Shown here: in pieces, positions 37,501-57,999 of the stretch
How positions within the stretch are numbered: the first letter of the stretch is position 1
How the letters are laid out: the number at the start of each line of letters is the position of its first letter
Virus record (IMG/VR): IMGVR_UViG_3300044675_002751
Span: 1-64,000 of that record
Reading direction: 5' to 3' (one strand)
Length of the DNA: 64,000 bases
DNA from: a virus
Notes under the pieces: generated by a model
Told to the model about the DNA's origin: nothing
What the model saw: the letters and a program-made list of their open reading frames with translations, nothing else
The model's database searches: none
Translations under genes and position numbers: made by a program

Positions 37501-40500
37501 GTTTTTCCTTATACTCATCTGACTTCTCATCTACACCATTGTCTACAAGACTCTGCTCAAAACGCTTTAAGTTAGATTCAAATAAACCCTGTATAGGAAC
37601 CCATTCAAAAAAGTCTCTTGATGCTTTACGATACTCTTTTTCAATCTTAGCCAGCTCCAGATCACGACCTGTTTTTGGATTACCATTAAGATCAGTGAGA
37701 GAAGCAAGCTGAGAATACTCTCTCCAAAGAATCTTTTTCTCTTCTGCAATAAAGTCAAGTGCATCATCATCATAGTTCATAGCATCCAGTTCTTGAATCT
37801 GGTTAAGCAAGATCTGCTTACGCCTGTATGCCTCACGACCCATCTCAGAATCATAGATCTTCTCACGCTCATAGTACTCAGGTACATACTCCTGGTGGAA
37901 ATAATCTCTACGTAACTTACGCATTTCTTTGAGCTTCTGATCAGCCAAAGTCTGGTCACCATCAGCTACTGCCTGGTCATAATCATATTTAAGTTGGGCA
38001 GAGTCAGCAGTGAAGTTATTAAACTTATCTTTAAAAGACCACACCTCTTTAGTAGCAAAATTACCTTTCTCATCTATGTAAGGAACTTTTTCTAGGCTAA
38101 CTATTTTACCCATCAGCTCAGAATAGTTTCTACGACTATAACCAGCTGCGTTCAATAATGGGTCAAGATCACGTACAAAATCATTTATATTACGTTGGGC
38201 TTTGGCATCTACGTCATTATATGCATTCTTAATAAACATAGCAAAACCTCCCACAATAGGATCTGGTGAGTTTGTATATGCTTCTAAAAATGCAGAGTAA
38301 CTATTAGTGTCACCAAGTTTACCTGTCAGCATATCTTTAAGTTTTTCCTTATCAATACGCATCTTTTCATACTTTGCCTTCACTTCATCTATCTTAGCTT
38401 TAGGAGCATTCTTGGCTACAAGAGCATCTATTTCTGCAGTGTACATCCTATCAATCTCTTTAGCCAATGGTTCTAAAGCCTCGTATATAACATCGTTTAC
38501 ATTATCACTATAGATCTTGTTAATGATCCTTTCTGTCTGAGCAACTGTATTTTGAACACCAGATACCACTCTTCCAAATTCTGTATTTGGATTAAGACCT
38601 GCATCAGCTAAACGGTCAACGGTTTCATTAATAAACTTATCCCAGTTACGTACAAGAAGATCATAGTAAAATATGTTCCCTATCACCTCTTTAGAATCAC
38701 CTTGTTTAGCCAACTCACGGACGTGATTTAGAATACTGTCACTCAGTTTCTGCAAACGAAGCATAGAGTGTACAAAACTTTGGGTAGTCTTAGCCCTTAT
38801 TGTAAGATCGTCAAAGATGTCAGCAAGTCTTTCATCTATCTCAGAGTTAGAAAGCGTAGACTTCAGTTCTTGTAACTGACCCCTACCGGTTTCATCTACC
38901 AAGAACTTACGGGCTTCGTTGTAGTTCTTGTTTTCACGTATACGTCTAATGTGATTAGACACTACATCATAAAAACGTTTTACAGAATTAGACACTCCGC
39001 TATATTCTACAGCATTAAGCTCATTCATAAAGTTACTGATATCACGGATATAATCTACCATGTCAGCTTCTGTAACAATATCAGTTGAGATGTTGAATTT
39101 ATTTCCTCTGAGCATCTCAGCCAGTTCTGCCAATGAAGTGTCAGTAGATAGCTTGTCTATATTTATAGAAGTACCAAATACCTTACGGAACATTTGCTTT
39201 AGGGCAAATATCATCTTCTTAATAAATTCACTAAACCCAACACTATCTTTTACACCATTTATCTGATTCTGAGCTTTAGCCGTTAATCCTCTAACAATAA
39301 CTTCCTCCCTGAACTTCTGATCTGTCTCATTAACCTCAGGATATAACGCCTGTACACCAGCAATAATACTTTGTCCTTCTGGAGTAGAAGCAAGTTGGTT
39401 GTAAAGATTATTAAACAGTGTAGGATTCTGAACTGCAACAGCAGCTATAAGTGGGTGAGAAAACTCATGTAGGACATTCTCTGTAGAAAAACCACCGTCT
39501 ACAAAATACACCTGACCATTAAAAAAGAAAGCTTTTTCTCCTCTCCATGGATTAGATGCATTAGCAGTTATCTCGGCAGCTTGTGCTGCAGTAACCATAG
39601 TGTAAGGAACACCTAGGTTCTCAGCTATGGTATCAGCCATAGTGCGGACAATATTTTGTCCTACCTCTATCTTCTGAGCTTGTTCTGTAGGTAATGTTGG
39701 CTCACTAACAACAGGATTAGTTAACTGAGAAAGGATTACATCCCCTGTTCTATCTTCTTGTCTAAATCCTTCAGTATCTCTTTGATCTCCTTGATCTCTT
39801 CTTTGGACATCTTGTCCTGCTGATACATTGCCAACATTCCTTGAAACGTTCCCTTCACCGACTCTAGAGAGCTCGTTTCCTTCAAAGCTTTTTGATAGAT
39901 TTCTTGTAGAGGACTTGTCATATTCATATTTTAGTTTTTTATATGTATCAAAATGTTTCTTGTATACAGAACGCATTAACCCCTCAAAGTAGGGATACTT
40001 GCCTGTGGCATATATGTTACCATATAATTTAGCAAGAGCTGTTGTAAAGCTAGCACCTTCACCCGACACTGTAGTGTGATTAATTTCGTGGATGATGATA
40101 TGGGTCATAAGACCAGTAGCTGCTTCTGCACTTTCTATGTTAAAAGACAATGGGTTAATAAAAATAGCATCAATAACCTTACTAACATGCACACCGCCAT
40201 AACTCTTATCTATAGAAACACCTGCAAAAAACTTACGGTCTGTACCTGAAAGTTTTTCATACTGGTAACCCAATTCTTTACCAGCAAATCTTACCATATC
40301 ATAGACTACAGAGCCAAAGTCACTAAAAAACTCAATAGCTCCTGGTACGGCCAGGTAATCAAAGTTAGTATTGTTATGATACTGAGGCTCATTTTCTTTA
40401 AAACCGCTGGTGTCTACAGTGTTTTTACCAAGTTCAATATCTTTATCAGCTTTAAAGCTAGAACCATATTTTTTCTCACGCTCTACTTCTACCTGATCAC

Positions 40501-42085
40501 CTGTCTCTTCATCCTTTACGCTATTACCAGTAATAACAAGCCTAGTTTTCTTGCGTGGTAATACGTCTTTGTACTTCTCATTTAGTCTCTTACGTTCAGC
40601 AATAGCATCATCCACCTCTTTATAAATCTTCTCTCTTTCTTCAGGAGTAAGTATCTTGTTTGGATCAGTCTTAGGTAGAGCACGGATGTTCTTAAATACA
40701 TCTGCTGCGTCTTTTTCTGCCTCACCGGCTGCATACTTTCGTAGATATGCATACAAGCTGTTAATGTCTTCGGTGACAGTGTTTTTAAAATCTTCTCTTT
40801 GATTATTGAAAGGATACTGCTCAGCAGTAGATCCAACAGACGGTTTAATGTTTATTACTATATTGTAAGGAATAGGCTCATAGTCTCTAAATTCAATACG
40901 TTTACTAAACTGAAAGAGTCCAGAAGAAAGTACCTCATGTCTTGGACTTTCTGTCTTCTCTTCTCCTACATATACTTCTGCTTCACCCCATGCAAACTTT
41001 ACATTAGAGAGCAGTGGTGGTAGTACTTCTTTAGAAATGTTTGCACCAATAGGTAACACTTGATTTTTTGTACTATTTCTCTTAGTTACATTCACACTGA
41101 CATTCAAATTACCAATAAGTGGACGAGTTAAAATGTCAAATCTGTCTACAGGATTAGATGCATACTCACCTGGGAAATCAATAGATCTGGTAGTTCCTTC
41201 AGGAGTAGTATAACTCTCAGGTATCTTAACCTTTACAAACGTACCATTAGGTTCAGATGTAGGTTCAGTACGGATCTGAAAGTCATCATTATATAGTTCA
41301 AGATTAGTAGCTTTTATAGAAGTCTTTATACCGTCTCGAACGGTAGCTACTTCTACATACTCACTACCTAATAAAAATTGCACTTTAGCCAAACCAAAAC
41401 CTCCAGAACGCTCACCTTCAGAAAGTCCTTCTTTATTAGTACCACCTATAGAAAGAAATGCACTCTTTACAATGTCAGGTGTCATACCAATACCATCATC
41501 TTTTATAGATATAGTACGCTCATCATAGTTAACATCAAGAGTGATATTACCCGGAGCGGCTGTATTTACAACCTGGGTACTTGGTTTAAAGTTTTGAATT
41601 TTTTGCTCTAAATCCTGCCTTCTATTAAACAATTCATTGACTTTCCATGGATCACCTGTAAGTACCTCACCTTGATCATCAAATGTAATCTTTTTACTTT
41701 CAGCAGACATGTCTACCATCACTTTATTAAACTCCCTGATAAGAGCTTGCTTTTGCTCCTGTGGATTACCAACTACAGTTTCTTTCTTACTAAGATTCTG
41801 TACGGTCTTAATGGCATCAAATGAGTTTTGTAACAACTCCTTTACTGCAACTTGTGCCAAAGGTTTGTTATACATAGTAGGACCAAGCAGCATAAGTAAC
41901 TGCTTCTTGTTTACACCAATCTGTCCTTGTTCTACAGAACCTTCTCTGTTATACATGACATATTCTTTGGCAGTAGGAATGCTCCCATTACCAATGGTCA
42001 TATAAGCACGGAAAGCTTCTTTCTCTCCGAGCTGTTCAACGAGACTAGTCCACTCTACTGAATTTTTGTTAGGGCAGGTTAACAT
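34571..42085 (-). CDS. Giant virion/ejection protein (2504 aa) with HtpG-like GHKL ATPase and two zincin HExxH motifs
   Basis: KELLQNSFDA, IKDDGIGM, GGFGLA and NGT GHKL boxes; HEINH and HEFSH..EE; directly downstream of the virion RNAP. Confidence 0.8.
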   Translation of the reverse strand: MLTCPNKNSVEWTSLVEQLGEKEAFRAYMTIGNGSIPTAKEYVMYNREGSVEQGQIGVNKKQLLMLLGPTMYNKPLAQVAVKELLQNSFDAIKTVQNLSKKETVVGNPQEQKQALIREFNKVMVDMSAESKKITFDDQGEVLTGDPWKVNELFNRRQDLEQKIQNFKPSTQVVNTAAPGNITLDVNYDERTISIKDDGIGMTPDIVKSAFLSIGGTNKEGLSEGERSGGFGLAKVQFLLGSEYVEVATVRDGIKTSIKATNLELYNDDFQIRTEPTSEPNGTFVKVKIPESYTTPEGTTRSIDFPGEYASNPVDRFDILTRPLIGNLNVSVNVTKRNSTKNQVLPIGANISKEVLPPLLSNVKFAWGEAEVYVGEEKTESPRHEVLSSGLFQFSKRIEFRDYEPIPYNIVINIKPSVGSTAEQYPFNNQREDFKNTVTEDINSLYAYLRKYAAGEAEKDAADVFKNIRALPKTDPNKILTPEEREKIYKEVDDAIAERKRLNEKYKDVLPRKKTRLVITGNSVKDEETGDQVEVEREKKYGSSFKADKDIELGKNTVDTSGFKENEPQYHNNTNFDYLAVPGAIEFFSDFGSVVYDMVRFAGKELGYQYEKLSGTDRKFFAGVSIDKSYGGVHVSKVIDAIFINPLSFNIESAEAATGLMTHIIIHEINHTTVSGEGASFTTALAKLYGNIYATGKYPYFEGLMRSVYKKHFDTYKKLKYEYDKSSTRNLSKSFEGNELSRVGEGNVSRNVGNVSAGQDVQRRDQGDQRDTEGFRQEDRTGDVILSQLTNPVVSEPTLPTEQAQKIEVGQNIVRTMADTIAENLGVPYTMVTAAQAAEITANASNPWRGEKAFFFNGQVYFVDGGFSTENVLHEFSHPLIAAVAVQNPTLFNNLYNQLASTPEGQSIIAGVQALYPEVNETDQKFREEVIVRGLTAKAQNQINGVKDSVGFSEFIKKMIFALKQMFRKVFGTSINIDKLSTDTSLAELAEMLRGNKFNISTDIVTEADMVDYIRDISNFMNELNAVEYSGVSNSVKRFYDVVSNHIRRIRENKNYNEARKFLVDETGRGQLQELKSTLSNSEIDERLADIFDDLTIRAKTTQSFVHSMLRLQKLSDSILNHVRELAKQGDSKEVIGNIFYYDLLVRNWDKFINETVDRLADAGLNPNTEFGRVVSGVQNTVAQTERIINKIYSDNVNDVIYEALEPLAKEIDRMYTAEIDALVAKNAPKAKIDEVKAKYEKMRIDKEKLKDMLTGKLGDTNSYSAFLEAYTNSPDPIVGGFAMFIKNAYNDVDAKAQRNINDFVRDLDPLLNAAGYSRRNYSELMGKIVSLEKVPYIDEKGNFATKEVWSFKDKFNNFTADSAQLKYDYDQAVADGDQTLADQKLKEMRKLRRDYFHQEYVPEYYEREKIYDSEMGREAYRRKQILLNQIQELDAMNYDDDALDFIAEEKKILWREYSQLASLTDLNGNPKTGRDLELAKIEKEYRKASRDFFEWVPIQGLFESNLKRFEQSLVDNGVDEKSDEYKEKRDKWIKNNTVIAYTPEFFEERNKVLADLNELMAGLSPEIRKAVDSSEEMEGMLDIATGFRDQDGQVIGTDISENSKKKVRQLQEAALAKRNSMAGFSGLTREEMDELSGYFQKIVAREKLSQEERGRMDELIERKNSLGVDKFTKTEMQALYSKLGDLQSKEATDYYVDIINNYLGKMGRAPVDNDSASTLLDPASYVELFKESPEFEQWFKDNHIAKEVFDKSINDTKIVYERLFIWNRTRPNNPDHYEKITLSSGEVIMGKPNLSYFYRGVKKEFRTKREVGKTIDNRGNWLPKSLEEGAVDDRYYNPDYEKLRREDPAAFAVLEKMKEYHLKFQEGLARESKLYMQIPRYRKPALESLQASKTGNKFYEWATRVKQYFAKAPDDVQDGLNFKPEQLIYADMFDEEINKVPITGLYALDPGQVSMNIADSMLRYMHSGLKQKKLIELNPFAQALKKAVGSPDNAIKEMGKINKWQYQKTGVKSYLSKKGASVRAKAIGNLYEREFEGKTKTGWLSDTPIALKSINALLKLASFGMFSMNILPSAIKNRQSAIVQLQNEASSGRYINWNSYRRGKFRAFKMLSIYSSQLYKTGNRSLDTQLLQIFDPTQEVLNTTLGDGSATDMGGQFGRSLASDAASLSFMMSPRKWLEIETVVELFSGVMHHVKVEQIVDGKPKEIDYIDAFEVVNGQIELKSGIDKEYAPGGKKFNEVKNRIHELGNRLNGTYARMDQPEAQRYALMSIAMFLKRYFTSMLMNRVAVTRPSAALGGVSTGYYTSVIQVARDIMKYGTSSMQWTTDEQKRNMLKFASDITHQMAILIILSSVFGYEEGDEDRFEKMRKRSGALNQDDFNFGGWLFNHGLVATLGTLSEVESFGSWGPTTLGRNWKVLKSTSGAILDPRTLYGTTIKKPLEFLDHTSQFLSDNPAGYYKRDAGPYWFQKEGQPKLLNDVADIFGVTGSQVDPVTALRKMEFGRK

Positions 42086-42102
42086 AGGGTATGTTCTTTA
42101 TA

Positions 42103-45100
42103 TTATTCTCCAAAGCATTTCTTCATAAACTCATCCACCATCTCATCGGTGATGTCTTGGTTAGACTGCATTTGCTTACGTAAAGCAGCATCTGTTTCTG
42201 ATCCAGGCATTACATAGTTAAGACGCTTGTACAGCTCTAATACCATATAGTTCTTTGTACGTGGAGCAGCAGCCAACATGTCTTTACCATTTACCACTGT
42301 CAGTCCTTGTTCAGGAAAAGCTACTTCATTACCATTTTCATATTGTGTTTCTATAGCAGTAATAGCATCATTAATCATCTTAGCATTTTCTTCAAAAGTC
42401 TCATCACTAAGAACTTTCTTACCGTCCTGAGTAATTGGAAAGCTAATACTGTTGTTAGCTTTCTGCATTACACCAAATACATCTTTGCTATCTTTAAAGT
42501 TTGGATATACAAGCATTATACTGCTATTTTTTTCTAACAATGCCTTAGCACTGCCTGCTCCGGCTATTGAAGGATATACAAACAGTCCTTGGATATTCTT
42601 AGTTAGTTGTGTTCCATCAGTTGAACTTGTACTAACTGATGACACATCCGGTGTATACAAATAGTTACGAAATCTCTGACGAGTAGAAGAATTAGAAGTA
42701 TTCCATATATCTGTAAACCGTTTAAAGTAGTCATTTAACAACTTAGACTTATCCTTCATTTCTGTAATCTCTTTCAAAGGTTCAGCCATAAGTTTAAGCA
42801 AAGTATCTTTTGGTAAAATGGAAGCTAAGTTATTAGAGCTTTTTGTAGCACCGGCTCTAATGTATTCAGCTACAATCATTCTGTTAAAGAACCTACTAAT
42901 CTCAGCGTTCTGTACAGGGTTTTCCACTTTTACAGTCATTGGATCAGCTAGACGTACCAAGTTTTCATGGAGTACATTTGCAAGATCTTTGTCTGTACGG
43001 GAAGAAGTAAGCTTCAGAGTCTTAAGTTTCTTATTGTTTGACTGAACAACATTACCTTCAGAATCAGCTTTAGCTCCTTCATTTACATAACCCAGCTGAT
43101 CAAATATCATATATTGTTCAGCCAGCTGTGGATACTTAGCTTTAATAGCCAGGAACTGGTCAGCTATACTAACACCAGGAGCCTTAAGCATATGATAAAA
43201 GTTAAAACTAAGTTCTAGAGCTCGAGTTGCTAGCTTTTGTTCATAAACTTCTCTTGACTCATTACCAACAGGTGTAATAGACCTAAGATGCTCACGCTCC
43301 ATTACAAAGTGAATATACTCCTGTAAGTTCTGGTAGTTACCACCCATGTTAAAAGTTTCAGCGTCAACAGTAGCCAAGCCCTGAGATTTGTAACCTTGAC
43401 CAGCAAATGCTTTAGTATTAAAATCAGACTCTATCTGGTTAAAGTCTAAGTACATCACTCCATCTTTTACAAAAGCACCTTGGCGTAACTGGACATTTTT
43501 AACCGGCAAAGCCTGCTTTACAGAAAGTCCTTTATACTCTTTAATGTTGTTAATATCTACCCCTTTCAGATAGTTCTGTAAGAGATACATTGGAAGGTCA
43601 TTATGAAAAGTAGCTACAAACTTTTCAGCAATTGGAAAAGCAGTAGCAAAAGATCTTGACTTTACTTTACTCAATAAAAAAGAGTTTATCTGAGCGTCAC
43701 CCCTCAGTTGCATAAGAGGTTTAAGTATACCCAACTGAAACTTTTGAACCAAGAAGGAACTAATTGGAGAATCTGTAAGAATCTTATCCTTCATATTTTC
43801 TGGTACTGCATCTACATACTCTAGTCCTTCAATCTTATCAAGACGCTCAGTTGCAGCAAACAAACTTTTAGAAGGAGCTGTATCTACGTTAACAGTGAGC
43901 TTGATGTTAGTCAGTTGCTTAGTAACTTCTTCTAGTTCTATAAAATGCAGTAATCCTGCAATAGCTTCAGGACTATTTCTGTCCTTAGACTTGATCACTT
44001 TTTCTAAAGAAGCTACATCATAGGTCCTGTTTTTATTAAAGTTTTCTATAGCTTTATACAGCAGATCGTTGGTAAGGTTTCCATCTTTGGTTAAAGCACC
44101 GATACCCAAACGAGTATAGAAATCTTTCTTGATACCAAATTTTCTCAAGCCTTTTTGTGAGCTAGCCTGATTCTCAGGATTAGCTGCATTGTAAAACGGA
44201 GACTCCACCTTGTACATCTCCTTGATATAGTCTACCACTAAAGGCTGTGATACAAAATAAGCTGCTGTACGGAAATCTACACCTGCTTCAAGCATAAACA
44301 ACAACACCGGACCGGCTATGTTATTACCGTTGATGTTAAAAATCCAGGCGTCTTTTTCAATGTCCACCCATCCGTTCATCAACTGACCAATAAGGTCACT
44401 CACCTTGTCCATAGTTACTGTGTTGATATCAGAAAGAGATATATACTCTTCCCCTTTCTCAGTCATTGTATTATGCTTCATCCTGATATTAATAGGACGA
44501 ACCTGTGGTTTTTTGCTTAAATCTATCTGACCGGTTTCTTTGTTAAAGTTGTAGTGTGTGTATGTCTTTTCAAGACGGGCACCCACTCTTTTAAATATAG
44601 AAGAGTAAGCATTATCCACGGCACCAATACCTAGAGTCTTCTTACCTATGTTGGTACGATCATGCACGAACATGTTGTAACGTGGCTCAAGTACACGAGT
44701 TGGAGAAATAACCTTAGTTTCTTTACCTTTTATTATAGCGGTACGCGGCTTGCCAGTCTTAACAGCAAAAGGATCGTATCCCTGAATGTTTTCACTAGCC
44801 AGTTCATCAGCTACACCTTTAACAAGGTCGGTATTGTTTGGACGTATAAGAGCATCAAAGTTGTCAGGGTGTTCAAGGATCTCACGGATCTTTTCTACCA
44901 CTTTATTTTCTGATGATTTAAGTCCTTTACCTTTTATGTATGTAGGCAGTTCATCAGTTGCTTCCTGTAAAAGAACCTTGTATACTTTCTGCTCGTCTTC
45001 AGTGAGCTCGTAAACAGAAAAGTCATTCTCTGCAGCATCTAGGATAATGTTAATGTTATCCATGCTAAAATCAAGATCCGGATACTTAGTTGACAGCTCT

Positions 45101-48100
45101 TTTATCTTACCCTTACTCTTGTCTCTGTTAATCTTAATACCAATGTTTGGTTGGAAAATTGTAAGTTTATCAATGTCAAAGTCAGCACCAGACTTGGCTA
45201 CGATTTCTGCAGGAGGAACAATGATAGACCCGGCTTCTTCAGGCAGGAACTCATACACCTCCATGAACTCCATGGAGTTTAATCCCTGTACGGGAATACG
45301 TACACCCACCATAGTGATCATCTTACGGTTATCACCTTTGTCTAGCCACTGGTCATCTTTGATCATCTCGTTAAGACGCTCACGGGTGCCGATCTTCTGG
45401 CCGTCATTGTGTTTCAGGTTAAGAAGTTTATAGTAATCACCCTTCAGAGAGATCTTCACCTTCATTGCGGTGGTCTTACCGCGTTTACCATTTTTATCTT
45501 TTTCACCAGGACGGTAAGTAGGTAGGTCGTTAGTACCACGATATTTCTTGATTTCTTCTTCTGAAGGATTGGTATAACGGTTACGAGATTCAAAACCGGC
45601 ACCAGATACCTGGACCAACATCTCACCATTCATCTTTTGTTTGACTAAACGCTTTACAACTATATTGTTTAGCATCTTCTCAATCTTCTCAGCGTTTAGT
45701 GAAAAGCTAAGATCTGTAAAGCTTCCTGATTCCAAGCTCTCTCGTACAAAGTCAATCTCATGTTCTGGCAATTCCAAACGCTCCATTTCACGAGCTACAA
45801 ACTCTAAAAGACTACGCATACTACCAGTAAGTTCCCCAGATGCATTCTCTTTCCAGCCAACTTGCTTTAAGAGTTCCTGCTTCTTATACTCCTGCATCTC
45901 TTCCAGCAAACCTTCGAAGTCTTTTACCAGTTTATCAAAGTCACCGGTAAGGGCAAAACCCTGTTTAAAAGTATCATTGATAATCAGCTTTCTAAGCTGC
46001 GTAGAAAATACAGTCTTATTTTTCCATGTAGACTGGATGTCGACTTGGTCTTTTAAATACTGTATAAAAATGTCATTAGGAGTGTAAGTAGGTTCACCCT
46101 CGTTCCATGGTTTTACAACACGGTTGTTGTAGTCATCATTCTCATATAAAGAGTCAGGCTTTCCATTAGAAGTGATAGTAGCTAGCTTTGATCCAGATTC
46201 AAACAATGCATAATCTACACCCTGCTTAACAAGGTTATCATGAAACACTTCCATGTTAGTTCCTTTTACCAGACTTGGGATAAGTGGTACCAAAGAGAAT
46301 TTATGGAATCCTTGTACATGTAGTTTCTCAGTCTTTACAGGACCAGCGTATTGGAACTTCTTGGTTGGGAAGAACTCAGTGATCTCAGCAGGATCTACTT
46401 GCTCACCAGCAATAATTCTATTGTAAAGATCATTCTGTTTTTCAGACCATGCACCTTCTAGTATAGAAAGTATTCTGTATGCATCAAAAGTAATCCAGCC
46501 CTGACCATCACCTTCTGTCATTTTCTCATATGGTTCAAGAATCTTAATGGCTTCCTCTTTACTATATTTTTCTGTAAGAGCTTCTAAGTATTCTTTATAA
46601 TAAACAGACGGTACATTATTATCTTTAAAGACCGCTGTTCTGATTGTACCATCGAAGCTTCTTTCGTTGGCACCAATAGCACGGGCATAACCACGACCTA
46701 GGTTGTTTATAAACTGATTAACAGCTTCATCACTGGCAAAGATCCTACCAGTAGAACCAATAGACGCATTACGTTTATGAAACTCTTCTTTGTTATGATT
46801 ATATAAAGCTAGATCTCCATAAAAAAGAGACACCATTTCCATATTGTGAATCAGAGCATTAACCGTAAATGCCTTGATAGCTACATCCTGCAGCATTGCT
46901 GTCTGGTCTTCACCTACAGCTACAGAAACGTCTTTACGTATATAAGAAGCTATATCTTTTCCATCTCTTGAGCTGTGTAAAAGCTCAGGAGAAATAAAAG
47001 GCATTTCCTGGAAAAACTTCATATTTTCCTCAAACAGTCCGTTTAGATATACACGGATATCATCTGTAATCTTTTGTTTGATCTCGGGTGCATTAATAAC
47101 TGATAAAGAGTCATCAGCATTAGCCATTTTTTTAAGCTGCTCCTTAGTATTGATTAAAATGTCATCAAACATCATAAACTCTTGACCACGCTCGTTAAAT
47201 CCTGGGATGTTTGGAACCTGTCCTTGTTTGATGATAGCCATACGCTCCATCTCAGCTGCAATCTTTGGTAAAAGAAGGTCTACACTATGACTTAACCAAT
47301 TACCTTTTGCACCACCTTCTTTCTCATAAAAATGACCAGGGCTGATATAAAGATGACGGGTATCCTTTGTATTAAATGGAGAGTTAATCTTAGATACGCT
47401 TATGCCATAAGCAGTTGACTTAGATGCATGCCTTGGTAGTTCCATTATACCTTGCCCAAGCATAGTATGAATGTCAAACAAAAACTTAGATGCTGGATCT
47501 AGGTTAGTAGTTTTAATACCAGACTGAACACTTTGTCCACCAGCTATTGTTTCTATAACACTCTTAATACCATCTAGGTTAACAATGTTCATAGTCACAA
47601 AACCACTGGACAAGTTAGTTCCATCAGCAATACGCTTATTTTTATTAGCCATATCTACTAACTTACCACTTGGTATACTAAACATAGAGTTTAGCAGTAT
47701 TGCGTACTTTGCGTGAGGATTTCTACGAAAGTCTAAATGTTGCAAATGGGCATATTGAACTAGCCCTCTTTTTTTAGTCGGATTATCTTTATCAAGGCTA
47801 TCATCTTCATCAACACTATAATCTAACTCAGGATTATTTATATCGTTAAGCAACTTAGTAATAGAGTTATTTAAAGAAAGGTCGTATACAATGTCACCGT
47901 TTACGTTAGTAACAGCATTGTTAGTGTACTTACCGCTATCCTGTGCTTCTATAGATAGAATCTTATTTACATTGGAAGACTCACCTCCTTTAGGTCCTGC
48001 TTTACGTAGTGCGTTTATAGGGTTGGACGGCATCTGGTTTTTCTCTGCCATCCACTTTACAGCGTTGTACAGGAATCCAATAGACTTATAGTTATCTCTT

Positions 48101-51100
48101 ATCTGTTCCCTAATAGCGTTATTATCTGTAAGGAAGAAACCTATGGATCTCAAAAACTGCAAAGCTTTTTCCTCATTAATAATAATATTGTCTTTACCAA
48201 ATATTTGATAATATGGAAAGTCTTTAATAACCTGTTTAGTGTTCAGCTCATTACCAGCTGCAGACTTGTTAATATATGCACCACGGGGCATTCCCTGAAA
48301 CTGTGATACAAATGTTTTTTCTACCTGGCGGAACTGGGGAGATACTTCTGAAAACTCAAAACTAAATCCACCTTCACTGTCAGATATCAAACGTCCTTCT
48401 TTAATAGGTACTCTGTATACAGAAAAGTCTCTAAAGAAGTTGATCCATATCTTCATGTATGGCCAGTTCTTAGTTTGTGTATGGTCCAACGGATTACGCA
48501 TTCGGTCCACCAAGGCCTTTAGCTCAGGAAAACGTTGAGAAGCTTCTGATAACTTACCATACATCTGGTTAGTTGTATTAGAACCAGCCACTGTATTTAT
48601 TACAATACTCCAGGTTTTGTTAAAGTCAACCAATTTGGGTACACCTAAAGCATTAAGTACAGGATTACCTTTCCTATCTACTTGAGGAAGACTTTTGATA
48701 AGATATACTATCTCGTTAGATGCAAGTTCACGTACAGAGAGTTCGTTACCCTTACGCTCAAAAGCGTTCTGTCCATACTCTTCACGCATCTGCTGTTCGG
48801 TCTTAGCCAGGGGATTTTCTGTGTCTTTAACTTCAGCAGCTTCTTCATTTACACTTTGGTCATACCCATCCATATCAACCACCCTGTCTTCAAATGTGAA
48901 GTAAGAGCTTCTTTTCTTATGGAAAGCAATGACACCAGTAGTTTGTTCACCCTTTGCCACCTTGGAGAAATCTCCCCAGTTTGCAAGAGCAAAGTCTAGA
49001 ATACGTGCTGCAGCAGGTTTATCTACCAAATCTTCTCTCAGCTTTTCTAACTTATTTTTAATATCTATCTCATAAAGTGGACCTATTAACTCAGGCCTGG
49101 TAAATATTGATCCAATGCTAAATTTGTAATCAGAAAGTGTAGATGCTATTAAAGAGTCTATAGTTTCTACTAGTGTAATAGAATCCTGGTAGTTCAGTGA
49201 CTCATCCACCTTTGGATCTACAGCCTCCATTCCTTTATTAAGAACACCAAACTGTACGTTCTTTATAGAAGGTGTATAATCATTGATGTCTCCTATATAT
49301 AGTTTATCATATAGTTCTTGAATACCTTTAACAGCAGTACGGTCAGCAGCTATGTCTTTAAAGCTGTATCCGCTAAACAACTGCTTTAGAAAGTTCCATA
49401 TCTTTCTAAAGAGGCTATTACGTACAGGACGTCCATTAATAACATTCTTACGGTCAGAGAGTACGTACTTTCTAAAGTCTTCTGCCATAAACTCTTCCAG
49501 CTGCATATCAGTGGCTGCACTAAACTTTACAGTGCGTCCGTCAGCAGTTTTAAAACTACCAGTAAGTTTACGGGCTTCATTATAAAGAGCTTTCTTCTGC
49601 TCTTTAGTTAAGAACATCTGTGAGAAAGCATGCCAACCCTCATGATAAAGATCTGTAAAGTTAGATCCGCTCCATAGTGTAATACCAGAAACAGTAAACT
49701 CAGCTAGTGCATTGGAGTTTACTACATTAAACATTACCTGAAAAGGAACAATCTTAGATAGTGGTGAGTTATTATACCACTTTTCAGCAGCATCAATCTG
49801 CTCTTTGGTAGCTGTACTATCAAGTAGTAAAGACTTTTTTAAAGAAAAGTCTGTACGGTCAAGCAATGCTTTAAACGCACTGACTGGGGTATCTGTAGGT
49901 GTAGACTGCTCTAAAGAAGAAGTTTGTTCTTTAGGCTGAACCTTTACCTCACCAAAAATCTTTTTCTGTGTTTCTGCAGTAGGGAATATAGTATTATAAG
50001 CATTAAGGCTTACTATCTTACCCTCCTCATTTTTAGCCAGGTTAGTATAAAAGTTATCAGCCAAAAAGTTATTATAACGCTCTGGCTGCAGTGTCACCTT
50101 ACCATCCAGGTTAACCGGCATATTAAAAGTTGTACCAACTAAGTCTTTATTAATGTTTACAGTTTGAGTGTTCAGGTTTGTTACAAACTTGTCCTTGTTC
50201 TCAGCTGTCACCTCAAAGGTCTCTCCACCTTGTTTGATCATAAGCTTACCATCTATCTCAAAGATGTTTGTATCATTAGAGAAAGTAAACTGCTTTAGTG
50301 TTTTGATCTTGTCAATATTGGAAACGTCAGCGTTAAAGATCATATCAGCCAGGTTCGGTACTAGGCTAGGTATGTTCTGAAACTTAGGTCTGCGTATAAG
50401 AAGCGGAAACTCGTAATCTGGTACATTAAAATAAACACCCCCGTTAATAAGAATACCAGTTTCTTGGTTAGAAATCCAAGGTTTAAAACCTTCAGGTAGC
50501 TCAATAGAACTTATAGAATTTTTCTTAGAAAAGTCTTCCTTTACATAACCGTTCTTACCTGGACTAACAGAAAACAATAACACCTGACTTGGGTTAGATA
50601 TAATAAACTGTCTTGATTTTTCCAAGACATCCATTTCCTGGTTACGTTCTTTAGTAAGTTCTTCCACTGTACCAAAACCTTTTCGTACAAGATCTGCTAC
50701 AGTTTGTACACGACCCACCATACGCTGACCTGCCACTTGTCCTTTAGCCTCGTTGCTCTTAGACGGTGTATATGGTCTACGCATCTTTCCATAAGCAATG
50801 ACACCCTTATCTTTTTCTACAGGAGTTCCCTGTTGGTCAAAGTATAAAATATTACCCTGCTTGTCAGAAAATACAAGATATGTTTCATCACCTTTATCCC
50901 TCTGCTCCATTTTCTGCTGAGCTGTTTTAGCAAACGGGGTTCCTGCAGCATCATCTGTAGAATAGTATTGTTTGTCTGCCTCTTGTAATTGATCAAATGG
51001 AATCATAGAAGCAGGTATCAATCTTAAGTAGATACCAGTTACATTACCCAGAGTTAGTTTATCAGCTGTAGGTCTGTTGTACTGACTCATCAGATTGTTG

Positions 51101-51702
51101 AGCTTCCTTACTACAGCATAGTAGGCACGTTTAACTGGATCCGGATCTGGTATATTCTGTTCTGCCTTTACTCCACCATAAGCTTTAGCTTCTTGGTTAA
51201 ATACAGCAAAAGCTGTTTCCGGGGCGGCAACAAAACTAATTTCAGAGTTTAGTAATGCTTTTTTCTTTTCCTCATCCTTTTTTTCAATTTCTGTGTACCC
51301 ATCTGTCGGTAGCACACCTGTAGAAGGGTTGCTTTCCTCTATAATTTCAGCCGCTGCTTCATTAGTTGCTAAGGCAGGTTGAAGAAACTTAGCTACGTTT
51401 TGTATGTCAGCATTAAAGTCTGCGTCTAACTGATCAAGCTCAGAAAGATTTACAGCACTTTTTCTCATATGAGCTTTACTATCTTCAAACATAGCATAGC
51501 TCAGTAGCAACATACTTGGCATATGCTGTATGTAGTCCATAGCATTTGCCTGCTCTGCACCAGCATCAACGAGTGTTTTATACAAGTCTCGGATAGCTTG
51601 TAAAGCATTAAAATTATCACCACGATTTTTAGAAGCAATGACTGCTCCGTGTACAACACCAAATAGTGATGATATCTGATCTTCTGATAATCTACAAGCC
51701 AT
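42103..51702 (-). CDS. Virion-encapsidated single-chain RNA polymerase (phi14:2 gp66-like), with N-terminal zincin motif
   Basis: GADFDIDKL catalytic loop (45169-45183), RIP.QG..SM, DGQG, STQ.RK; YHEGWH..EE.MAE.F. Confidence 0.9.
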   Translation of the reverse strand: MACRLSEDQISSLFGVVHGAVIASKNRGDNFNALQAIRDLYKTLVDAGAEQANAMDYIQHMPSMLLLSYAMFEDSKAHMRKSAVNLSELDQLDADFNADIQNVAKFLQPALATNEAAAEIIEESNPSTGVLPTDGYTEIEKKDEEKKKALLNSEISFVAAPETAFAVFNQEAKAYGGVKAEQNIPDPDPVKRAYYAVVRKLNNLMSQYNRPTADKLTLGNVTGIYLRLIPASMIPFDQLQEADKQYYSTDDAAGTPFAKTAQQKMEQRDKGDETYLVFSDKQGNILYFDQQGTPVEKDKGVIAYGKMRRPYTPSKSNEAKGQVAGQRMVGRVQTVADLVRKGFGTVEELTKERNQEMDVLEKSRQFIISNPSQVLLFSVSPGKNGYVKEDFSKKNSISSIELPEGFKPWISNQETGILINGGVYFNVPDYEFPLLIRRPKFQNIPSLVPNLADMIFNADVSNIDKIKTLKQFTFSNDTNIFEIDGKLMIKQGGETFEVTAENKDKFVTNLNTQTVNINKDLVGTTFNMPVNLDGKVTLQPERYNNFLADNFYTNLAKNEEGKIVSLNAYNTIFPTAETQKKIFGEVKVQPKEQTSSLEQSTPTDTPVSAFKALLDRTDFSLKKSLLLDSTATKEQIDAAEKWYNNSPLSKIVPFQVMFNVVNSNALAEFTVSGITLWSGSNFTDLYHEGWHAFSQMFLTKEQKKALYNEARKLTGSFKTADGRTVKFSAATDMQLEEFMAEDFRKYVLSDRKNVINGRPVRNSLFRKIWNFLKQLFSGYSFKDIAADRTAVKGIQELYDKLYIGDINDYTPSIKNVQFGVLNKGMEAVDPKVDESLNYQDSITLVETIDSLIASTLSDYKFSIGSIFTRPELIGPLYEIDIKNKLEKLREDLVDKPAAARILDFALANWGDFSKVAKGEQTTGVIAFHKKRSSYFTFEDRVVDMDGYDQSVNEEAAEVKDTENPLAKTEQQMREEYGQNAFERKGNELSVRELASNEIVYLIKSLPQVDRKGNPVLNALGVPKLVDFNKTWSIVINTVAGSNTTNQMYGKLSEASQRFPELKALVDRMRNPLDHTQTKNWPYMKIWINFFRDFSVYRVPIKEGRLISDSEGGFSFEFSEVSPQFRQVEKTFVSQFQGMPRGAYINKSAAGNELNTKQVIKDFPYYQIFGKDNIIINEEKALQFLRSIGFFLTDNNAIREQIRDNYKSIGFLYNAVKWMAEKNQMPSNPINALRKAGPKGGESSNVNKILSIEAQDSGKYTNNAVTNVNGDIVYDLSLNNSITKLLNDINNPELDYSVDEDDSLDKDNPTKKRGLVQYAHLQHLDFRRNPHAKYAILLNSMFSIPSGKLVDMANKNKRIADGTNLSSGFVTMNIVNLDGIKSVIETIAGGQSVQSGIKTTNLDPASKFLFDIHTMLGQGIMELPRHASKSTAYGISVSKINSPFNTKDTRHLYISPGHFYEKEGGAKGNWLSHSVDLLLPKIAAEMERMAIIKQGQVPNIPGFNERGQEFMMFDDILINTKEQLKKMANADDSLSVINAPEIKQKITDDIRVYLNGLFEENMKFFQEMPFISPELLHSSRDGKDIASYIRKDVSVAVGEDQTAMLQDVAIKAFTVNALIHNMEMVSLFYGDLALYNHNKEEFHKRNASIGSTGRIFASDEAVNQFINNLGRGYARAIGANERSFDGTIRTAVFKDNNVPSVYYKEYLEALTEKYSKEEAIKILEPYEKMTEGDGQGWITFDAYRILSILEGAWSEKQNDLYNRIIAGEQVDPAEITEFFPTKKFQYAGPVKTEKLHVQGFHKFSLVPLIPSLVKGTNMEVFHDNLVKQGVDYALFESGSKLATITSNGKPDSLYENDDYNNRVVKPWNEGEPTYTPNDIFIQYLKDQVDIQSTWKNKTVFSTQLRKLIINDTFKQGFALTGDFDKLVKDFEGLLEEMQEYKKQELLKQVGWKENASGELTGSMRSLLEFVAREMERLELPEHEIDFVRESLESGSFTDLSFSLNAEKIEKMLNNIVVKRLVKQKMNGEMLVQVSGAGFESRNRYTNPSEEEIKKYRGTNDLPTYRPGEKDKNGKRGKTTAMKVKISLKGDYYKLLNLKHNDGQKIGTRERLNEMIKDDQWLDKGDNRKMITMVGVRIPVQGLNSMEFMEVYEFLPEEAGSIIVPPAEIVAKSGADFDIDKLTIFQPNIGIKINRDKSKGKIKELSTKYPDLDFSMDNINIILDAAENDFSVYELTEDEQKVYKVLLQEATDELPTYIKGKGLKSSENKVVEKIREILEHPDNFDALIRPNNTDLVKGVADELASENIQGYDPFAVKTGKPRTAIIKGKETKVISPTRVLEPRYNMFVHDRTNIGKKTLGIGAVDNAYSSIFKRVGARLEKTYTHYNFNKETGQIDLSKKPQVRPINIRMKHNTMTEKGEEYISLSDINTVTMDKVSDLIGQLMNGWVDIEKDAWIFNINGNNIAGPVLLFMLEAGVDFRTAAYFVSQPLVVDYIKEMYKVESPFYNAANPENQASSQKGLRKFGIKKDFYTRLGIGALTKDGNLTNDLLYKAIENFNKNRTYDVASLEKVIKSKDRNSPEAIAGLLHFIELEEVTKQLTNIKLTVNVDTAPSKSLFAATERLDKIEGLEYVDAVPENMKDKILTDSPISSFLVQKFQLGILKPLMQLRGDAQINSFLLSKVKSRSFATAFPIAEKFVATFHNDLPMYLLQNYLKGVDINNIKEYKGLSVKQALPVKNVQLRQGAFVKDGVMYLDFNQIESDFNTKAFAGQGYKSQGLATVDAETFNMGGNYQNLQEYIHFVMEREHLRSITPVGNESREVYEQKLATRALELSFNFYHMLKAPGVSIADQFLAIKAKYPQLAEQYMIFDQLGYVNEGAKADSEGNVVQSNNKKLKTLKLTSSRTDKDLANVLHENLVRLADPMTVKVENPVQNAEISRFFNRMIVAEYIRAGATKSSNNLASILPKDTLLKLMAEPLKEITEMKDKSKLLNDYFKRFTDIWNTSNSSTRQRFRNYLYTPDVSSVSTSSTDGTQLTKNIQGLFVYPSIAGAGSAKALLEKNSSIMLVYPNFKDSKDVFGVMQKANNSISFPITQDGKKVLSDETFEENAKMINDAITAIETQYENGNEVAFPEQGLTVVNGKDMLAAAPRTKNYMVLELYKRLNYVMPGSETDAALRKQMQSNQDITDEMVDEFMKKCFGE

Positions 51703-51705
51703 TGC

Positions 51706-54700
51706 TTACTTTGTTTTACATCCTAGGTTCTGAAGAAGATTGTTAAGATTTTGCTGGTTATCTGTACCTGCAGCTTTAGCCGCATTCTCTCCTGCTTGTT
51801 TTACTGCAGCAGAATTTTGTGTAAATGCACTTTTAGTATCCTGTGAAGCCTCGACTTCTTTTTTATCTTGCGGGGTTATTTCTATATCTGGGGTGGGTTC
51901 CATAGAGACAGCTTTACCAGGTTCAACATTAGAGATTTTCTGAGACAGGTCTTTGGCAGCAATAACTTCTGCAACACTCTGTGAACTACCGGCAATCTTT
52001 ACACTTACTTCGTTATTGTTTACAGATTTTACAAAGCCTTTTCTACCGTCTACAAATGTAACTATATCACCTTTCTGTAGATCTTTTGGGGATATGTTCT
52101 GTAGAAGTTCTCCACGTCTTTTAGCAAGCATTGTAGTTATATCTTTACTCTTAGCTTGACCAGTAGAGATAAGCTCAATAAGATCTATTGTAATTGGTTT
52201 ACTATCTGCTTTAGATAAATCAGGAAGGTCTTTAATAGAAGATACAGAATCTATAAGTTCCTGAGCTTTTTGAGAACCTGTTTTTTCTGCAGGTCCAGGC
52301 TTTTCTGTTTCATCTACTTCAGGAGTAGTTTCAGCAGGTTTAGCTCCTTCTAAAGCAGCTAGTTCTGCGTTATATTTAGTATTTAAAGCATCAACTGCAT
52401 CTTGATACTTTTTAATGTAAGTAGTTTCATCTACTCCAAGTTTCTTAGCATCATCCTTTAAATTAGCCTGGTTAGGAAGCTGCCACTTATTAGTACTGGC
52501 ATTCCAAAATGATTTACTAACTAAGTAATTATTGTCTCTATCTACAATAGCAGCAATCTTTTCATTCTTATCTGCATACGCAAATAGACCATTGCCTAAA
52601 TCTATATAAACACCGTTAGGTAGTGCTTGAGATAAAGGAATGCTGCCTGAGATTGTACCATATAGTGTTTTTTCTATATCAGCTTTCTTATCAGAAACTT
52701 GTGTAACAACAGGTTCTGTACGAGCTGTTCCTTGTGCTTGTGCAAGAGGAGAATCGTTAGGTTGAAGAACAGCCGTTGTAGTACTTGTTGTGGCTGGCGT
52801 AGCTGCTGCTGCAGGTTGAGCTTTTCCTTTGTTAAACTGAGCTTTAATCCTAGCAGCTCTTGGGGAAATACGTACAAACTCATCAAAGCTCATTTCTGAA
52901 CCATACTCTTCTATGTATTGATTATAAGCGTCCTCAAGTTTAAGTTGAAGTTCAGGATCTAAAACTTCTGCAGCAGGTGTCGTAGTACTAGTAGTATCAG
53001 CTGGTTTAGAGTCTTGAGTAGCTACTGGTTTTTCAACAACTGGGTCAGCTGTAACAGGAGGAGCATCATCTCTAATCTGATCATCTATTTCCAAAATAGC
53101 CTGTACTGCAGCATACTTAGGTGAACTAGGATCCAGATCTTTTAATGTACCAGCATCAATAAACGTAGTAGGTTTTTTACCTGTACGTACGAACTCTTGA
53201 AGTTCTTCAGGATCCAACATTACTCCCTGAGCAGTTATTGCTTTAATAAGCTCATTCATTTCCATAATACGCTGACCACGCTCTATACGGGTAGCTGTGT
53301 CTGCTTCTCTATTTTGAAACAAGTCCGTTAACTTAGCATTTAATCTTTCAGCATGCTTAAAAAGATTACCAGGGTCCAGTAGGTTATTAACTATTTGATT
53401 ATAATTACGAGCATTACTATTTAGATTATAGTAGTCTAATAGTTTTACAAAAGAGTCATCAATCTTATCATCAAATACGTAATCACTATTTACAGCAGCT
53501 ATCTGCTTTAAATAAGCTTTATAACTTTCTTTTAAAGGATCAATAGTGTCTTGTCCAAACTGTATAATAATCTGACCGTTCTCTTCTACCTCAGTAGTGT
53601 TTGCTTTTTCAAGATGGGTACGAAGCTTATCTCTATAATCCATTAACCGGTCAAGTCTTTCTTTCTTTTGCTCTCCTAGTTTCTTTTGTTCAGGTTCTGT
53701 AATTGCCTGGTAGGATTTAACTTCTTTGTCAAGAAGAGATATTTCATTATCAAGAACATCTAAACTTGTAAGGACAGTAAAGTCTGATGAAGAAGCTTTT
53801 GATACAGGACGGTTGCTAGCAAGATCACTATATAAACCATTCATTCTTTGTAACGAACGGTCAAAGTTATACTGAGAAGCAATAGCTGTTTTCTTTGCTG
53901 CTTCAAATGCTCTGAAGGCAATAGCTTCCTGAGTAAACTCAGGAGTGCCTTTCTTTATCTTGTTAGGTGTAAATGGATTCTTAAACTGCTTACTGATAGT
54001 ATCATATCTATGTTTTATTTCTTCAGCACGTGATATGATCTCTTGAAGTTTCTCTGTATTTTTAGCTGACTCAGGTGTACCAAGAAAATTAGCAAGTTCT
54101 TTACTATCAAGTTTAGAAAGTTCCTTGTAGTTATCTATTAATCCTTCAAATGTTCCGTTGTCCAGAGCAGTAAAGATGTGGTCAAACATCTTTAAATCTT
54201 TAGCATCCTGGAATGTTTTAGCATCCCCTGCAGCCTCAGCTTGGTTCATCACATCTGAAGTGTGTTTCTGTACAACAGCACTCTCGTTAGTAGAACTAAA
54301 ATATTTAAGAGGATTTTTATAAAGTTCATTTAACCCATCAATAGCTTCTTGACGTGTTTTCTGTTTGTTAGCTTTAAATTCAGCATACTTTTTTGGCTGA
54401 GCCACTCTATAATAAATACTAGGTACATCTTTAAGGAAAAGATTCTGAGCTTTTCCCATAAACCCTCCCATAAGAAATCCTGAAGCAAAAGTGTCTAGTC
54501 CACGAGTAGACGTAAATTCTTTACTGATTGCATCCCACGCATGACCAGCAGCATAATCAAAACCACCTAGTGTAGGATCTTTATATACTCCATCATAGTA
54601 TGCACTAACAGCATCTGATGTTACATTCTGTAAGTTTTCCTGAATACCCTCAGCAAAGTTTCTTCTAAAGTAACTTAATCCCATGCCAACATAAGCCTTT

Positions 54701-56118
54701 GGGTTCATTAAGTTATTTTTAGTACTCTTTACCCATCCGTCCGCCAAGGCATCAAAATATCCTGTTCCCTTCTTAAACCCAACACCTTTTTGTGCCATCT
54801 CAGCTGCCTCATCCAGGGTCTTAAAACCACGGAACTTAAACAGACCGTCAAGCACAACACGGTTGGTCAGGTATATAGTAGGGAAGTTAATAGCTGTTAC
54901 ACCATAACCAGTATCTTCTGCTTGCTCATATATTCTTTCAAGATCTTTTCCTTCTGGAGCTTTACCGTTGTCTTTCTCATATTTATCCATCAGCTCGTTA
55001 ATCTTATCTAACCTAGCACTACCACCTTCTAACTTTGATTCAGAAAGTGCCAGATTAAGATCACGCATATCTCTATAGAAAGATCCAAATGTCTGCTTAG
55101 CTTTAGCTGCATTACTTGCATTACGAATACTTGCAGTACCCCTTGCCATATCTACAACATCATCTGTAGTACGTGTAAGAGGATTTACAAACTGTAAAGC
55201 TCCTTTACCTAAAGTGTAAGCACCAGCTTTTGCTGCTGTATAAAATGTCTTTGCGTCTTGTATTTTAGAAAGAGACTTAGCAAGAGCTACTCCTCCGCTT
55301 GCAATATTACCTATAGCATTAGTATTGTATCCTTGCTTTACTCCTTTACCAAAACGAGCAAAGTTTGCTGCTGTTCTCATTGCAGCAATACCACCCATTG
55401 CACCTTCAGAAACAACGGTTGCACCAAACAATGCAGCTTCTTCAGCTAAAATACTTAAACCAATACCGACTGTATATGCAGAGTTAAGAGCAAAGTTATT
55501 TACCCAAGCTCCTACTCCGGCTAGTCCTCCTTCTCTGCTAGACATCCCTATAGACTGAAGTCTTGCAAAGTTTTCTGCAGTCTGATCATCAGGACTAAAA
55601 AAATCATCACCTTTTGCTAAACTTGCCATTGATCTATAACCAGATACACCTCCTTCATAAGCTAGTGATCCAAAGACAGAAGCCATACGACCATAGTCCT
55701 GCCAGATAGTAGTGTTCTTATTAAAGTTCTTTTCGTTATCTACAAAAGGAGAAAAGCCCACCTTGTTAAATGTCTCTTTACCATAGCCTAGATAACGATC
55801 TACGTTTAGTTTCTTAGCATCAAATTCTGCTACCCTAGCTGCTTGAAACTGGTTACGACTTTGATTAGCCATCTGAGCAATACCGCCACCTTCTGTTAAT
55901 CCTTTTAACCACTGACGCTGTATATCTGAACGCTTTTTTAGATCAGCCATAGTTACTGGCTTCTTCTTAGCAGGAGGATCACCAGGATCAGTTTGGTTAT
56001 TTTCTAACTCCTGTAAATCAAAAGCACCTAGTGCATCTGTAGGGTCTGTAACACCTCCCAGATCTAGACCAGCACCTATTGCCTGAGTATCAAGAGTATT
56101 TAATGTATCTACTGCCAT
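51706..56118 (-). CDS. Giant virion/ejection protein (1470 aa)
   Basis: Gly/Ala-rich hydrophobic N-terminal helices, coiled coils, C-terminal KOW/SH3-like segment; directly upstream of RNAP. Confidence 0.75.
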   Translation of the reverse strand: MAVDTLNTLDTQAIGAGLDLGGVTDPTDALGAFDLQELENNQTDPGDPPAKKKPVTMADLKKRSDIQRQWLKGLTEGGGIAQMANQSRNQFQAARVAEFDAKKLNVDRYLGYGKETFNKVGFSPFVDNEKNFNKNTTIWQDYGRMASVFGSLAYEGGVSGYRSMASLAKGDDFFSPDDQTAENFARLQSIGMSSREGGLAGVGAWVNNFALNSAYTVGIGLSILAEEAALFGATVVSEGAMGGIAAMRTAANFARFGKGVKQGYNTNAIGNIASGGVALAKSLSKIQDAKTFYTAAKAGAYTLGKGALQFVNPLTRTTDDVVDMARGTASIRNASNAAKAKQTFGSFYRDMRDLNLALSESKLEGGSARLDKINELMDKYEKDNGKAPEGKDLERIYEQAEDTGYGVTAINFPTIYLTNRVVLDGLFKFRGFKTLDEAAEMAQKGVGFKKGTGYFDALADGWVKSTKNNLMNPKAYVGMGLSYFRRNFAEGIQENLQNVTSDAVSAYYDGVYKDPTLGGFDYAAGHAWDAISKEFTSTRGLDTFASGFLMGGFMGKAQNLFLKDVPSIYYRVAQPKKYAEFKANKQKTRQEAIDGLNELYKNPLKYFSSTNESAVVQKHTSDVMNQAEAAGDAKTFQDAKDLKMFDHIFTALDNGTFEGLIDNYKELSKLDSKELANFLGTPESAKNTEKLQEIISRAEEIKHRYDTISKQFKNPFTPNKIKKGTPEFTQEAIAFRAFEAAKKTAIASQYNFDRSLQRMNGLYSDLASNRPVSKASSSDFTVLTSLDVLDNEISLLDKEVKSYQAITEPEQKKLGEQKKERLDRLMDYRDKLRTHLEKANTTEVEENGQIIIQFGQDTIDPLKESYKAYLKQIAAVNSDYVFDDKIDDSFVKLLDYYNLNSNARNYNQIVNNLLDPGNLFKHAERLNAKLTDLFQNREADTATRIERGQRIMEMNELIKAITAQGVMLDPEELQEFVRTGKKPTTFIDAGTLKDLDPSSPKYAAVQAILEIDDQIRDDAPPVTADPVVEKPVATQDSKPADTTSTTTPAAEVLDPELQLKLEDAYNQYIEEYGSEMSFDEFVRISPRAARIKAQFNKGKAQPAAAATPATTSTTTAVLQPNDSPLAQAQGTARTEPVVTQVSDKKADIEKTLYGTISGSIPLSQALPNGVYIDLGNGLFAYADKNEKIAAIVDRDNNYLVSKSFWNASTNKWQLPNQANLKDDAKKLGVDETTYIKKYQDAVDALNTKYNAELAALEGAKPAETTPEVDETEKPGPAEKTGSQKAQELIDSVSSIKDLPDLSKADSKPITIDLIELISTGQAKSKDITTMLAKRRGELLQNISPKDLQKGDIVTFVDGRKGFVKSVNNNEVSVKIAGSSQSVAEVIAAKDLSQKISNVEPGKAVSMEPTPDIEITPQDKKEVEASQDTKSAFTQNSAAVKQAGENAAKAAGTDNQQNLNNLLQNLGCKTK

Positions 56119-57988: not shown

Positions 57989-57999
57989 ACAGTTCTTTT

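Follow-up and report, generated by a model that had tools for sequence, protein, structure and literature searches.

The stretch analysed here (the window) comprises positions 1 to 64,000 of the virus record IMGVR_UViG_3300044675_002751, an 88-kb IMG/VR entry with a completeness of about 70%. We focused on three giant proteins encoded side by side in its late gene block, and on the few cysteine (Cys) residues that they contain. From 34571 to 64000 the minus strand forms a single unbroken run of large genes, and the plus strand carries no rival open reading frame (ORF) of 150 amino acids (aa) or more in this part. Taken in gene order, the first of the three proteins is p1470 (51706-56118, minus strand; 1470 aa), whose sole Cys is residue 1467, fourth from the C-terminus in the tail motif ..NLGCKTK (codon TGT, 51718-51720, minus strand); it has no N-terminal Cys. 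The second, p3199 (42103-51702, minus strand; 3199 aa), is the putative middle link of the arrangement proposed below, and contains only Cys3, in the start MAC... (TGT, 51694-51696, minus strand), and Cys3196, fourth from the C-terminus (TGC, 42115-42117, minus strand). The third, p2504 (34571-42085, minus strand; 2504 aa), is encoded by the final gene of the minus-strand block and would be the last link. It begins MLTCPNKN..., with Cys4 (TGC, 42074-42076, minus strand) as its sole Cys, and has none at the C-terminus.

Together, these three proteins have 4 Cys in 7173 residues (0.056%), as against 156 in the 10172 residues of the remaining window ORFs (1.53%). At the latter frequency about 110 would be expected, which indicates a strong suppression relative to the other genes of the window. 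All four lie within 4 residues of the four mutually facing termini, and the number of internal Cys is 0. The proteins are thus not completely Cys-free in the manner of the Schitoviridae (N4/DEV), since four conserved terminal Cys are present. The probability of randomly placing four Cys into the four facing 4-residue end zones is approximately (16/7173)^4, i.e. ~2.5e-11. The p1470/p3199 and p3199/p2504 junctions have intergenic gaps of 3 nucleotides (nt) and 17 nt, respectively, and in both p3199 and p2504 the N-terminal Cys comes after the first ATG downstream of the preceding stop. An earlier sequence-only reading of the window had listed Cys1467, Cys3, Cys3196 and Cys4 with their codon coordinates, and each of these was reproduced exactly by translation. 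It had also stated that the first protein lacks an N-terminal Cys and the last a C-terminal one, which was found to be true both in the window and in its relatives.

We identified p3199 by comparison with the phi14:2 RNA polymerase (PDB 6VR4), which it matched in three collinear stretches (phmmer E 2.1e-27; E 1.9e-31 in a local rerun). The catalytic metal-binding motif DFDIDK at residues 2174-2179 (45166-45183, minus strand) aligned with the same motif of 6VR4, and D2174, D2176 and D2178 were invariant in 27 homologues. On this sequence evidence, p3199 is a crAss-type virion RNA polymerase of the phi14:2 gp66 / PDB 6VR4 type. Its homologues have been detected in virions by mass spectrometry, both in phi14:2 (according to its annotation) and in crAss001 (PMC10172136). 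We also observed an HExxH motif (YHEGWHAF, residues 687-691; 49630-49644, minus strand) in the N-terminal third of the polymerase. H687, E688 and H691 were invariant in the 27 homologues and no Pfam model matched; the motif looks like a zincin-type metallopeptidase site. In p-crAssphage a zincin protease fusion is annotated in the neighbouring protein, not in the polymerase.

The conservation of the end Cys was examined in two sets of relatives. A database search with the polymerase yielded 573 homologues, and Cys were tallied in the 120 matches listed, which had 31-85% identity. Both end Cys (the first within positions 3-6, the second 1-6 residues from the C-terminus) were present in 114 of these 120, most of which had no further Cys in more than 3000 residues; the other 6 appear to be truncated or fused, or to have a miscalled start. 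When IMG/VR was scanned with the 27-polymerase alignment, 78 loci at 27-72% identity were obtained. The sequence-only reading had proposed that Cys positions be tabulated in orthologous triplets. When this was done, 48 of the 49 complete non-redundant triplets had the full pattern, with Cys at the C-terminus only in the upstream protein, at both ends in the polymerase and at the N-terminus only in the downstream protein, and the terminal Cys were conserved as pairs. In the 364,197 residues of these triplets, 203 Cys were terminal and 13 were internal. The sole failing triplet, L068 (IMGVR_UViG_3300042886_000261), has a frameshift at locus positions 7670-7800 that cuts off the N-terminus of the polymerase, and the true start (MVNCSLSQ..) lies in the neighbouring frame. 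The frameshift is probably an assembly error; it sits at a lysine-rich stretch, probably an A-run.

Three alignments were made: of the 27 polymerases (A1), of the last 260 residues of the polymerase (A2), and of the 80 N-terminal residues of 21 p2504 relatives (A3). The N-terminal Cys of the polymerase was an invariant column in A1, Cys3196 was one of two invariant columns in A2, and Cys4 of p2504 was the sole invariant column in A3, while the flanks varied. Wherever the upstream protein of a relative was complete, it had a Cys 1-10 residues from its C-terminus. The terminal Cys codons of the relatives were both TGT and TGC, the end offsets ranged over 1-10 residues and the gaps between the genes from -13 to +18 nt. 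Since codon choice, offsets and gaps all vary, it is the amino acid that is under selection and not a DNA signal. This conservation in relatives rules out chance independently of the estimate of 2.5e-11, and on the alignments the end-Cys pattern is a conserved one. The C-terminal tails also fell into classes that match the N-terminus that follows (..FMKKCFGE with M..CPNKN; ..EESKNCN with MACSIIRN; ..DPFKC with M.CEVK.N), although genetic linkage could equally yield such matching classes.

We then counted terminal Cys at 224 adjacent co-oriented junctions from 73 non-redundant loci. Both sides had a terminal Cys at 136 of the junctions and neither side at 86; only 2 were one-sided, one due to the L068 frameshift and the other to a small, Cys-rich ORF that is unrelated. 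As the loci are related, the junction counts are not independent events, and this weighs against reading too much into them. Changes of gene architecture, in contrast, provide independent tests of the pairing rule. Seven loci have a fourth link: an additional protein of 242-757 aa is encoded between polymerase and last protein. It has Cys at both ends, and the protein that follows it has an N-terminal Cys only. The C-terminal domain of the L038 and L046 polymerases is a separate protein of 242-252 aa in L052 and L061, the polymerases of which are 56-58% identical. The pair ..KKSC / MAC.. is found at the split point in L052 and L061 only, while the fused L038 and L046 have no internal Cys. In P0118 (4470 aa), where the upstream protein is fused to the polymerase, the single Cys is the last residue. 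The compared sequences thus indicate that the pairs come with splits and go with fusions, in at least four independent cases.

The named crassviruses followed the same rule. In the Steigviridae (phi14:2, Kehishuvirus and DAC15) there are three links, with pairs at the real junctions; in phi14:2, gp078 ends in Cys, gp077 has Cys3 and Cys2179, and gp076 has Cys3. In the Intestiviridae (p-crAssphage LMMB, crAss002 and cr271_1) the upstream protein is followed by a fusion of polymerase and downstream protein, and the pair is found at the real junction only. The same was seen in the Suoliviridae (cr4_1 and cr118_1), where a fusion of upstream protein and polymerase is followed by a downstream protein. 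This downstream protein begins MICPN.. and has the same module as p2504 of the window. The 4287-aa protein of Flavobacterium phage Fpv3 is probably a fusion of the Suoliviridae type, to judge from its length, its position and its pattern of Cys. The gene of the first protein in Kehishuvirus and DAC15 is on the opposite strand, convergent and non-adjacent, and still encodes a C-terminal Cys, which excludes gene adjacency or translational coupling as an explanation. As read from the translations, the rule is obeyed in three named Crassvirales families as well as in the 73 environmental relatives.

The named genomes provided further observations. In crAss002 (L086, NC_055828.1), a start at the internal Met33 of gp33 (locus 8948-9050) would read MSCTPS.., in line with the MSC.. 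start of its homologues in p-crAssphage and cr271_1. To judge from these, gp33 has probably been annotated to begin 32 codons too far upstream, and a start at Met33 restores the partner of the C-terminal Cys of gp32. In cr4_1 (L088, NC_055893.1; locus 1543-24459) the late genes contain many in-frame stops under translation table 11 (38 in gp26), as expected of a stop-codon-recoded crassvirus; the terminal Cys rule nonetheless holds. The named gut crassviruses had 1-14 internal Cys per protein of 2,200-5,000 aa, while the IMG/VR relatives had almost none. This contrast, which comes from a small sample, would fit a purge driven by oxidative mispairing.

The ends that carry these Cys were also examined structurally. 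An AlphaFold2 model of the last 260 aa of the polymerase predicted a C-terminal alpha/beta domain at about residues 3030-3185 (42148-42615, minus strand; predicted local distance difference test (pLDDT) 87-98). It was followed by a terminal helix at residues 3186-3197 (42112-42147, minus strand; helix 247-258 of the model, pLDDT ~75-78) with Cys3196 at its end. The alpha/beta domain overlaps a sub-threshold match to Pfam DUF7831 (E 7e-4, under the curated cut-off), and a Foldseek search against solved structures gave no match at E <= 0.001; the best structural rows showed a weak resemblance to dual-specificity phosphatases. In p2504, the N-terminal ~40 aa (41966-42085, minus strand) were predicted to form an extended stretch with CPNxN and, after it, a helical hairpin (pLDDT 83-93 for residues 1-40). 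Across the first 600 aa of p2504, most of the relatives compared share just this module, the exception being the close relative L006 with 73% identity across all 600. The 40-residue module fits a docking element. A complex prediction of the last 260 aa of the polymerase with the first 60 aa of p2504, using a 21-row alignment for each, gave a score of 0.31 against a mark of 0.32, which tells on neither side of the question.

The C-terminal ~200 aa of p1470 are conserved among relatives, and searches of Pfam, PHROG and PDB with this protein gave no match. In p2504, which has a modular build, we found a HATPase_c_3 (GHKL-type ATPase) domain at residues 177-266 (31.2 bits, cut-off 25), as well as a weak YgjP-like metallopeptidase match at residues 646-690; a PDB sequence search gave nothing usable. 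PHROGs had no family for p1470, p3199 or p2504, and a megablast of the region against the phage collection gave no match.

Taken together, the interpretation that we favour, and hold with moderate confidence, is that p1470, the polymerase and p2504 form a head-to-tail chain with Cys-Cys links at the facing ends, most probably disulfides, and that this chain is extruded as a thread. The single Cys near the C-terminus of each link would bond to the Cys at position 3-4 of the next, with docking through the conserved end modules, i.e. the terminal helix of the polymerase and the ~40-aa N-terminal mini-domain of p2504. The linked proteins would be packed as cargo and the juxtaposed thiols would oxidize inside the virion, bond formation probably taking place after packaging or release. 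The chain of ~7,200 residues would then pass the tail as one thread in a fixed order, and reductants of the host cytoplasm would sever the links and release the polymerase. The loss of all other Cys would leave one possible pairing and prevent stray cross-links in the capsid or periplasm. The sequence-only reading had proposed such a disulfide chain. Of its two parts, the pairing stood, being conserved down to 27-31% identity and borne out by the splits, fusions and the inversion, while the disulfide itself is carried over by analogy from A-4L, the podophage genome described below. The comparative sequences argue strongly for a pairing of the facing terminal Cys; a disulfide is the most probable chemistry of the crassvirus links if that analogy holds.

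Several points weigh against this interpretation. Disulfides between these proteins have yet to be observed in a crassvirus. The chain proteins are made in a reducing cytoplasm, and gut crassviruses from anoxic habitats still keep their Cys pairs, so that a catalyst may be required for oxidation, or the link may be of a different chemistry. Neither thioredoxin nor glutaredoxin nor Erv1/ALR turned up in the 88-kb record; as the record is ~70% complete and the Erv1 control matched nowhere, this search was uninformative. Also, no sequence similarity could be detected between p1470 or p2504 and the proteins at the corresponding positions in phi14:2, crAss001-like phages and A-4L, and the equivalence there thus rests on position and pattern. 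Finally, two unpaired terminal Cys occur outside the polymerase module, in proteins of 861 aa in p-crAssphage and 598 aa in Fpv3.

Some of these points would be accommodated if the facing termini were joined otherwise than by a disulfide, through a shared metal ion or another thiol chemistry. The hosts of the gut crassviruses are strict anaerobes, in which spontaneous oxidation is least likely, the incomplete record examined has yielded no phage oxidoreductase, and the pairing evidence is all blind to chemistry. However, each terminus has one Cys, and no conserved His, Cys or Asp stands alongside it in the alignments, so that a normal four-ligand metal site is not evident; and the only solved example of the signature, in A4, is a disulfide. 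We therefore regard such a link as unlikely, though it is the rival to be taken most seriously.

A second alternative is that the end Cys are not bonded to each other, but attach to the portal, tail or capsid, join two copies of one protein, or act as redox sensors. The tail proteins of crAss001 do contain disulfides (PMC10172136), and the two unpaired Cys mentioned above are on other virion-module proteins. In CrAssphage LMMB (L082, locus 5045-7630) the 861-aa protein has its sole Cys at -2, and in Fpv3 (L087, locus 799-2595) the 598-aa protein has Cys5 as its sole Cys, neither with a facing partner. Other partners would leave unexplained the consistent absence of an N-terminal Cys from the first protein and of a C-terminal one from the last, the co-occurrence of Cys at 136 junctions, to which the module has 0 real exceptions, and the fact that splits create, and fusions remove, both members of a pair jointly. 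This alternative appears quite improbable.

That the pattern arose by chance, from mis-called starts or from a nucleotide signal at the junctions such as translational coupling has a negligible probability and is excluded by the comparative sequence data: although only 3 and 17 nt separate the genes and the N-terminal positions hinge on the choice of start, the chance estimate is ~2.5e-11, the pattern is conserved to 27% identity with both codons and with variable offsets and gaps, it survives an inverted and distant first gene, and the starts are the first ATG past the upstream stop. Three other candidates were rejected: CaaX-type prenylation or a lipobox, as the Cys offsets vary over 1-10 residues and there is no signal peptide; intramolecular cyclization of the polymerase, as the neighbouring proteins have one Cys each; and intein-like ligation, as an intein domain is absent and the N-terminal Cys does not occupy residue 1.

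Directly upstream of p1470 are p622 and p473 (56120-59421, minus strand). The sequence-only reading had described these 622- and 473-aa proteins as Cys-free, and the translations indeed had 0 Cys in each, as in p444. They are candidate cargo outside the cysteine chain, and the corresponding neighbours in relatives are likewise Cys-free. A contrast to this Cys-free late block is provided by small Cys-rich ORFs (4-7% Cys) on the plus strand, at 1956-2351, 21082-21486, 21971-22414 (10 Cys in 147 aa) and 28465-28815, which are probably zinc-binding early proteins.

How crassvirus cargo passes through the narrow tail in an ordered manner is an open question (PMC10172136). Crassviruses are the most abundant phages of the human gut, their cargo proteins are 150-350 kDa each, and the polymerase is needed for the first transcripts. 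A covalent, reducible head-to-tail chain would, if true, be a simple physical answer to ordered ejection, and would also account for the lack of Cys in these proteins. The thread in the window would be ~0.8 MDa (7,173 residues), in which each protein would draw the next through the tail, with host reduction acting as the scissors. The purge of other Cys would be the price of a unique pairing, and split genes would regain the link by adding a Cys pair. The rule is also useful as an annotation aid, as it pinpoints where proteins truly begin and end, brings to light starts called wrongly (crAss002 gp33) and frameshifts from assembly (L068), and singles out the giant proteins of the injected set. 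The chain is directly testable on the cultured phages phi14:2, crAss001 and DAC15.

Among the closest known systems are the crassviruses phi14:2 and crAss001. In crAss001, gp47, gp49 and gp50 are carried in the virion as cargo and have to unfold in part to traverse the tail, and disulfides stabilize the tail itself; cysteines of the cargo are not mentioned (PMC10172136). Phi14:2, and crAss001 with gp47/gp50/gp49, have a homologous polymerase, the same gene order and the same terminal Cys pattern as the window, and mass spectrometry has detected these proteins, the neighbours of the polymerase included, in virions. Recognizable similarity is, however, limited to the polymerase core, and the window's proteins are longer (3199 versus 2180 aa for the polymerase). 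Among the papers accessible to our literature searches, none described a terminal-Cys rule for Crassvirales.

The ejection operon of the Schitoviridae (N4 gp50-52, DEV gp71-73) resembles the window in having a giant virion RNA polymerase with ejected neighbours in which Cys is suppressed. This strong suppression has been attributed to passage through the tail and periplasm (PMC11445570), and the same paper confirms the statement of the sequence-only reading that ejected proteins of the N4 type are Cys-free. The two systems differ in that the N4-like proteins are essentially Cys-free, whereas the window proteins keep one conserved Cys per facing terminus. The polymerases are also unrelated, that of N4 being T7-like and that of the window of the two-barrel crAss type. 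By analogy, the proposed chain may further be compared with protease-cut viral polyproteins, in which several units are carried along in a single covalent chain and come apart where they act. The units in the window are translated separately, and would join by side-chain bonds and part by reduction instead of proteolysis.

The closest likeness in design is to the cyanopodophage A4 (Anabaena phage A-4L). The structural account of its pre-ejectosome by cryo-electron microscopy (PNAS 2025, PMC12002296) describes the C-terminal helix of gp27 as inserted in gp26 and held there by a disulfide between Cys1715 and Cys5. The two genes are neighbours in A-4L; gp27 is 1717 aa long with Cys1715 as its only Cys, and gp26 is 1114 aa long with Cys5 as its only one. 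This signature, a sole C-terminal-side Cys upstream and a sole N-terminal-side Cys in the next protein, was also found at the two junctions of the window; in the one case that has a structure it thus equals a real disulfide. In A4 the partners are two large adjacent ejection proteins, with the Cys third from the C-terminus in the first and fifth from the N-terminus in the second. The terminal helix of the upstream partner bears the Cys, as is predicted by the model of the window polymerase. The window proteins gave no phmmer match to A-4L gp26-gp29 at E 0.01, and by this comparison the resemblance is one of design, not of descent. A4 belongs to the Saffermanviridae, and has one link and no virion RNA polymerase, while the window has two links (some relatives three) with the polymerase in the centre. 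In that account of the pre-ejectosome the bond is mentioned as one feature of the structure, and is neither generalized to a rule nor extended to a chain (PMC12002296). We consider it an evenly balanced proposition that Crassvirales and, independently, certain unrelated podophages such as A4 tie their injected proteins end to end by single terminal disulfides into a redox-cleavable thread. A single link of this kind is already known in A4; what is new here is the proposed multi-link chain with the polymerase in its middle.

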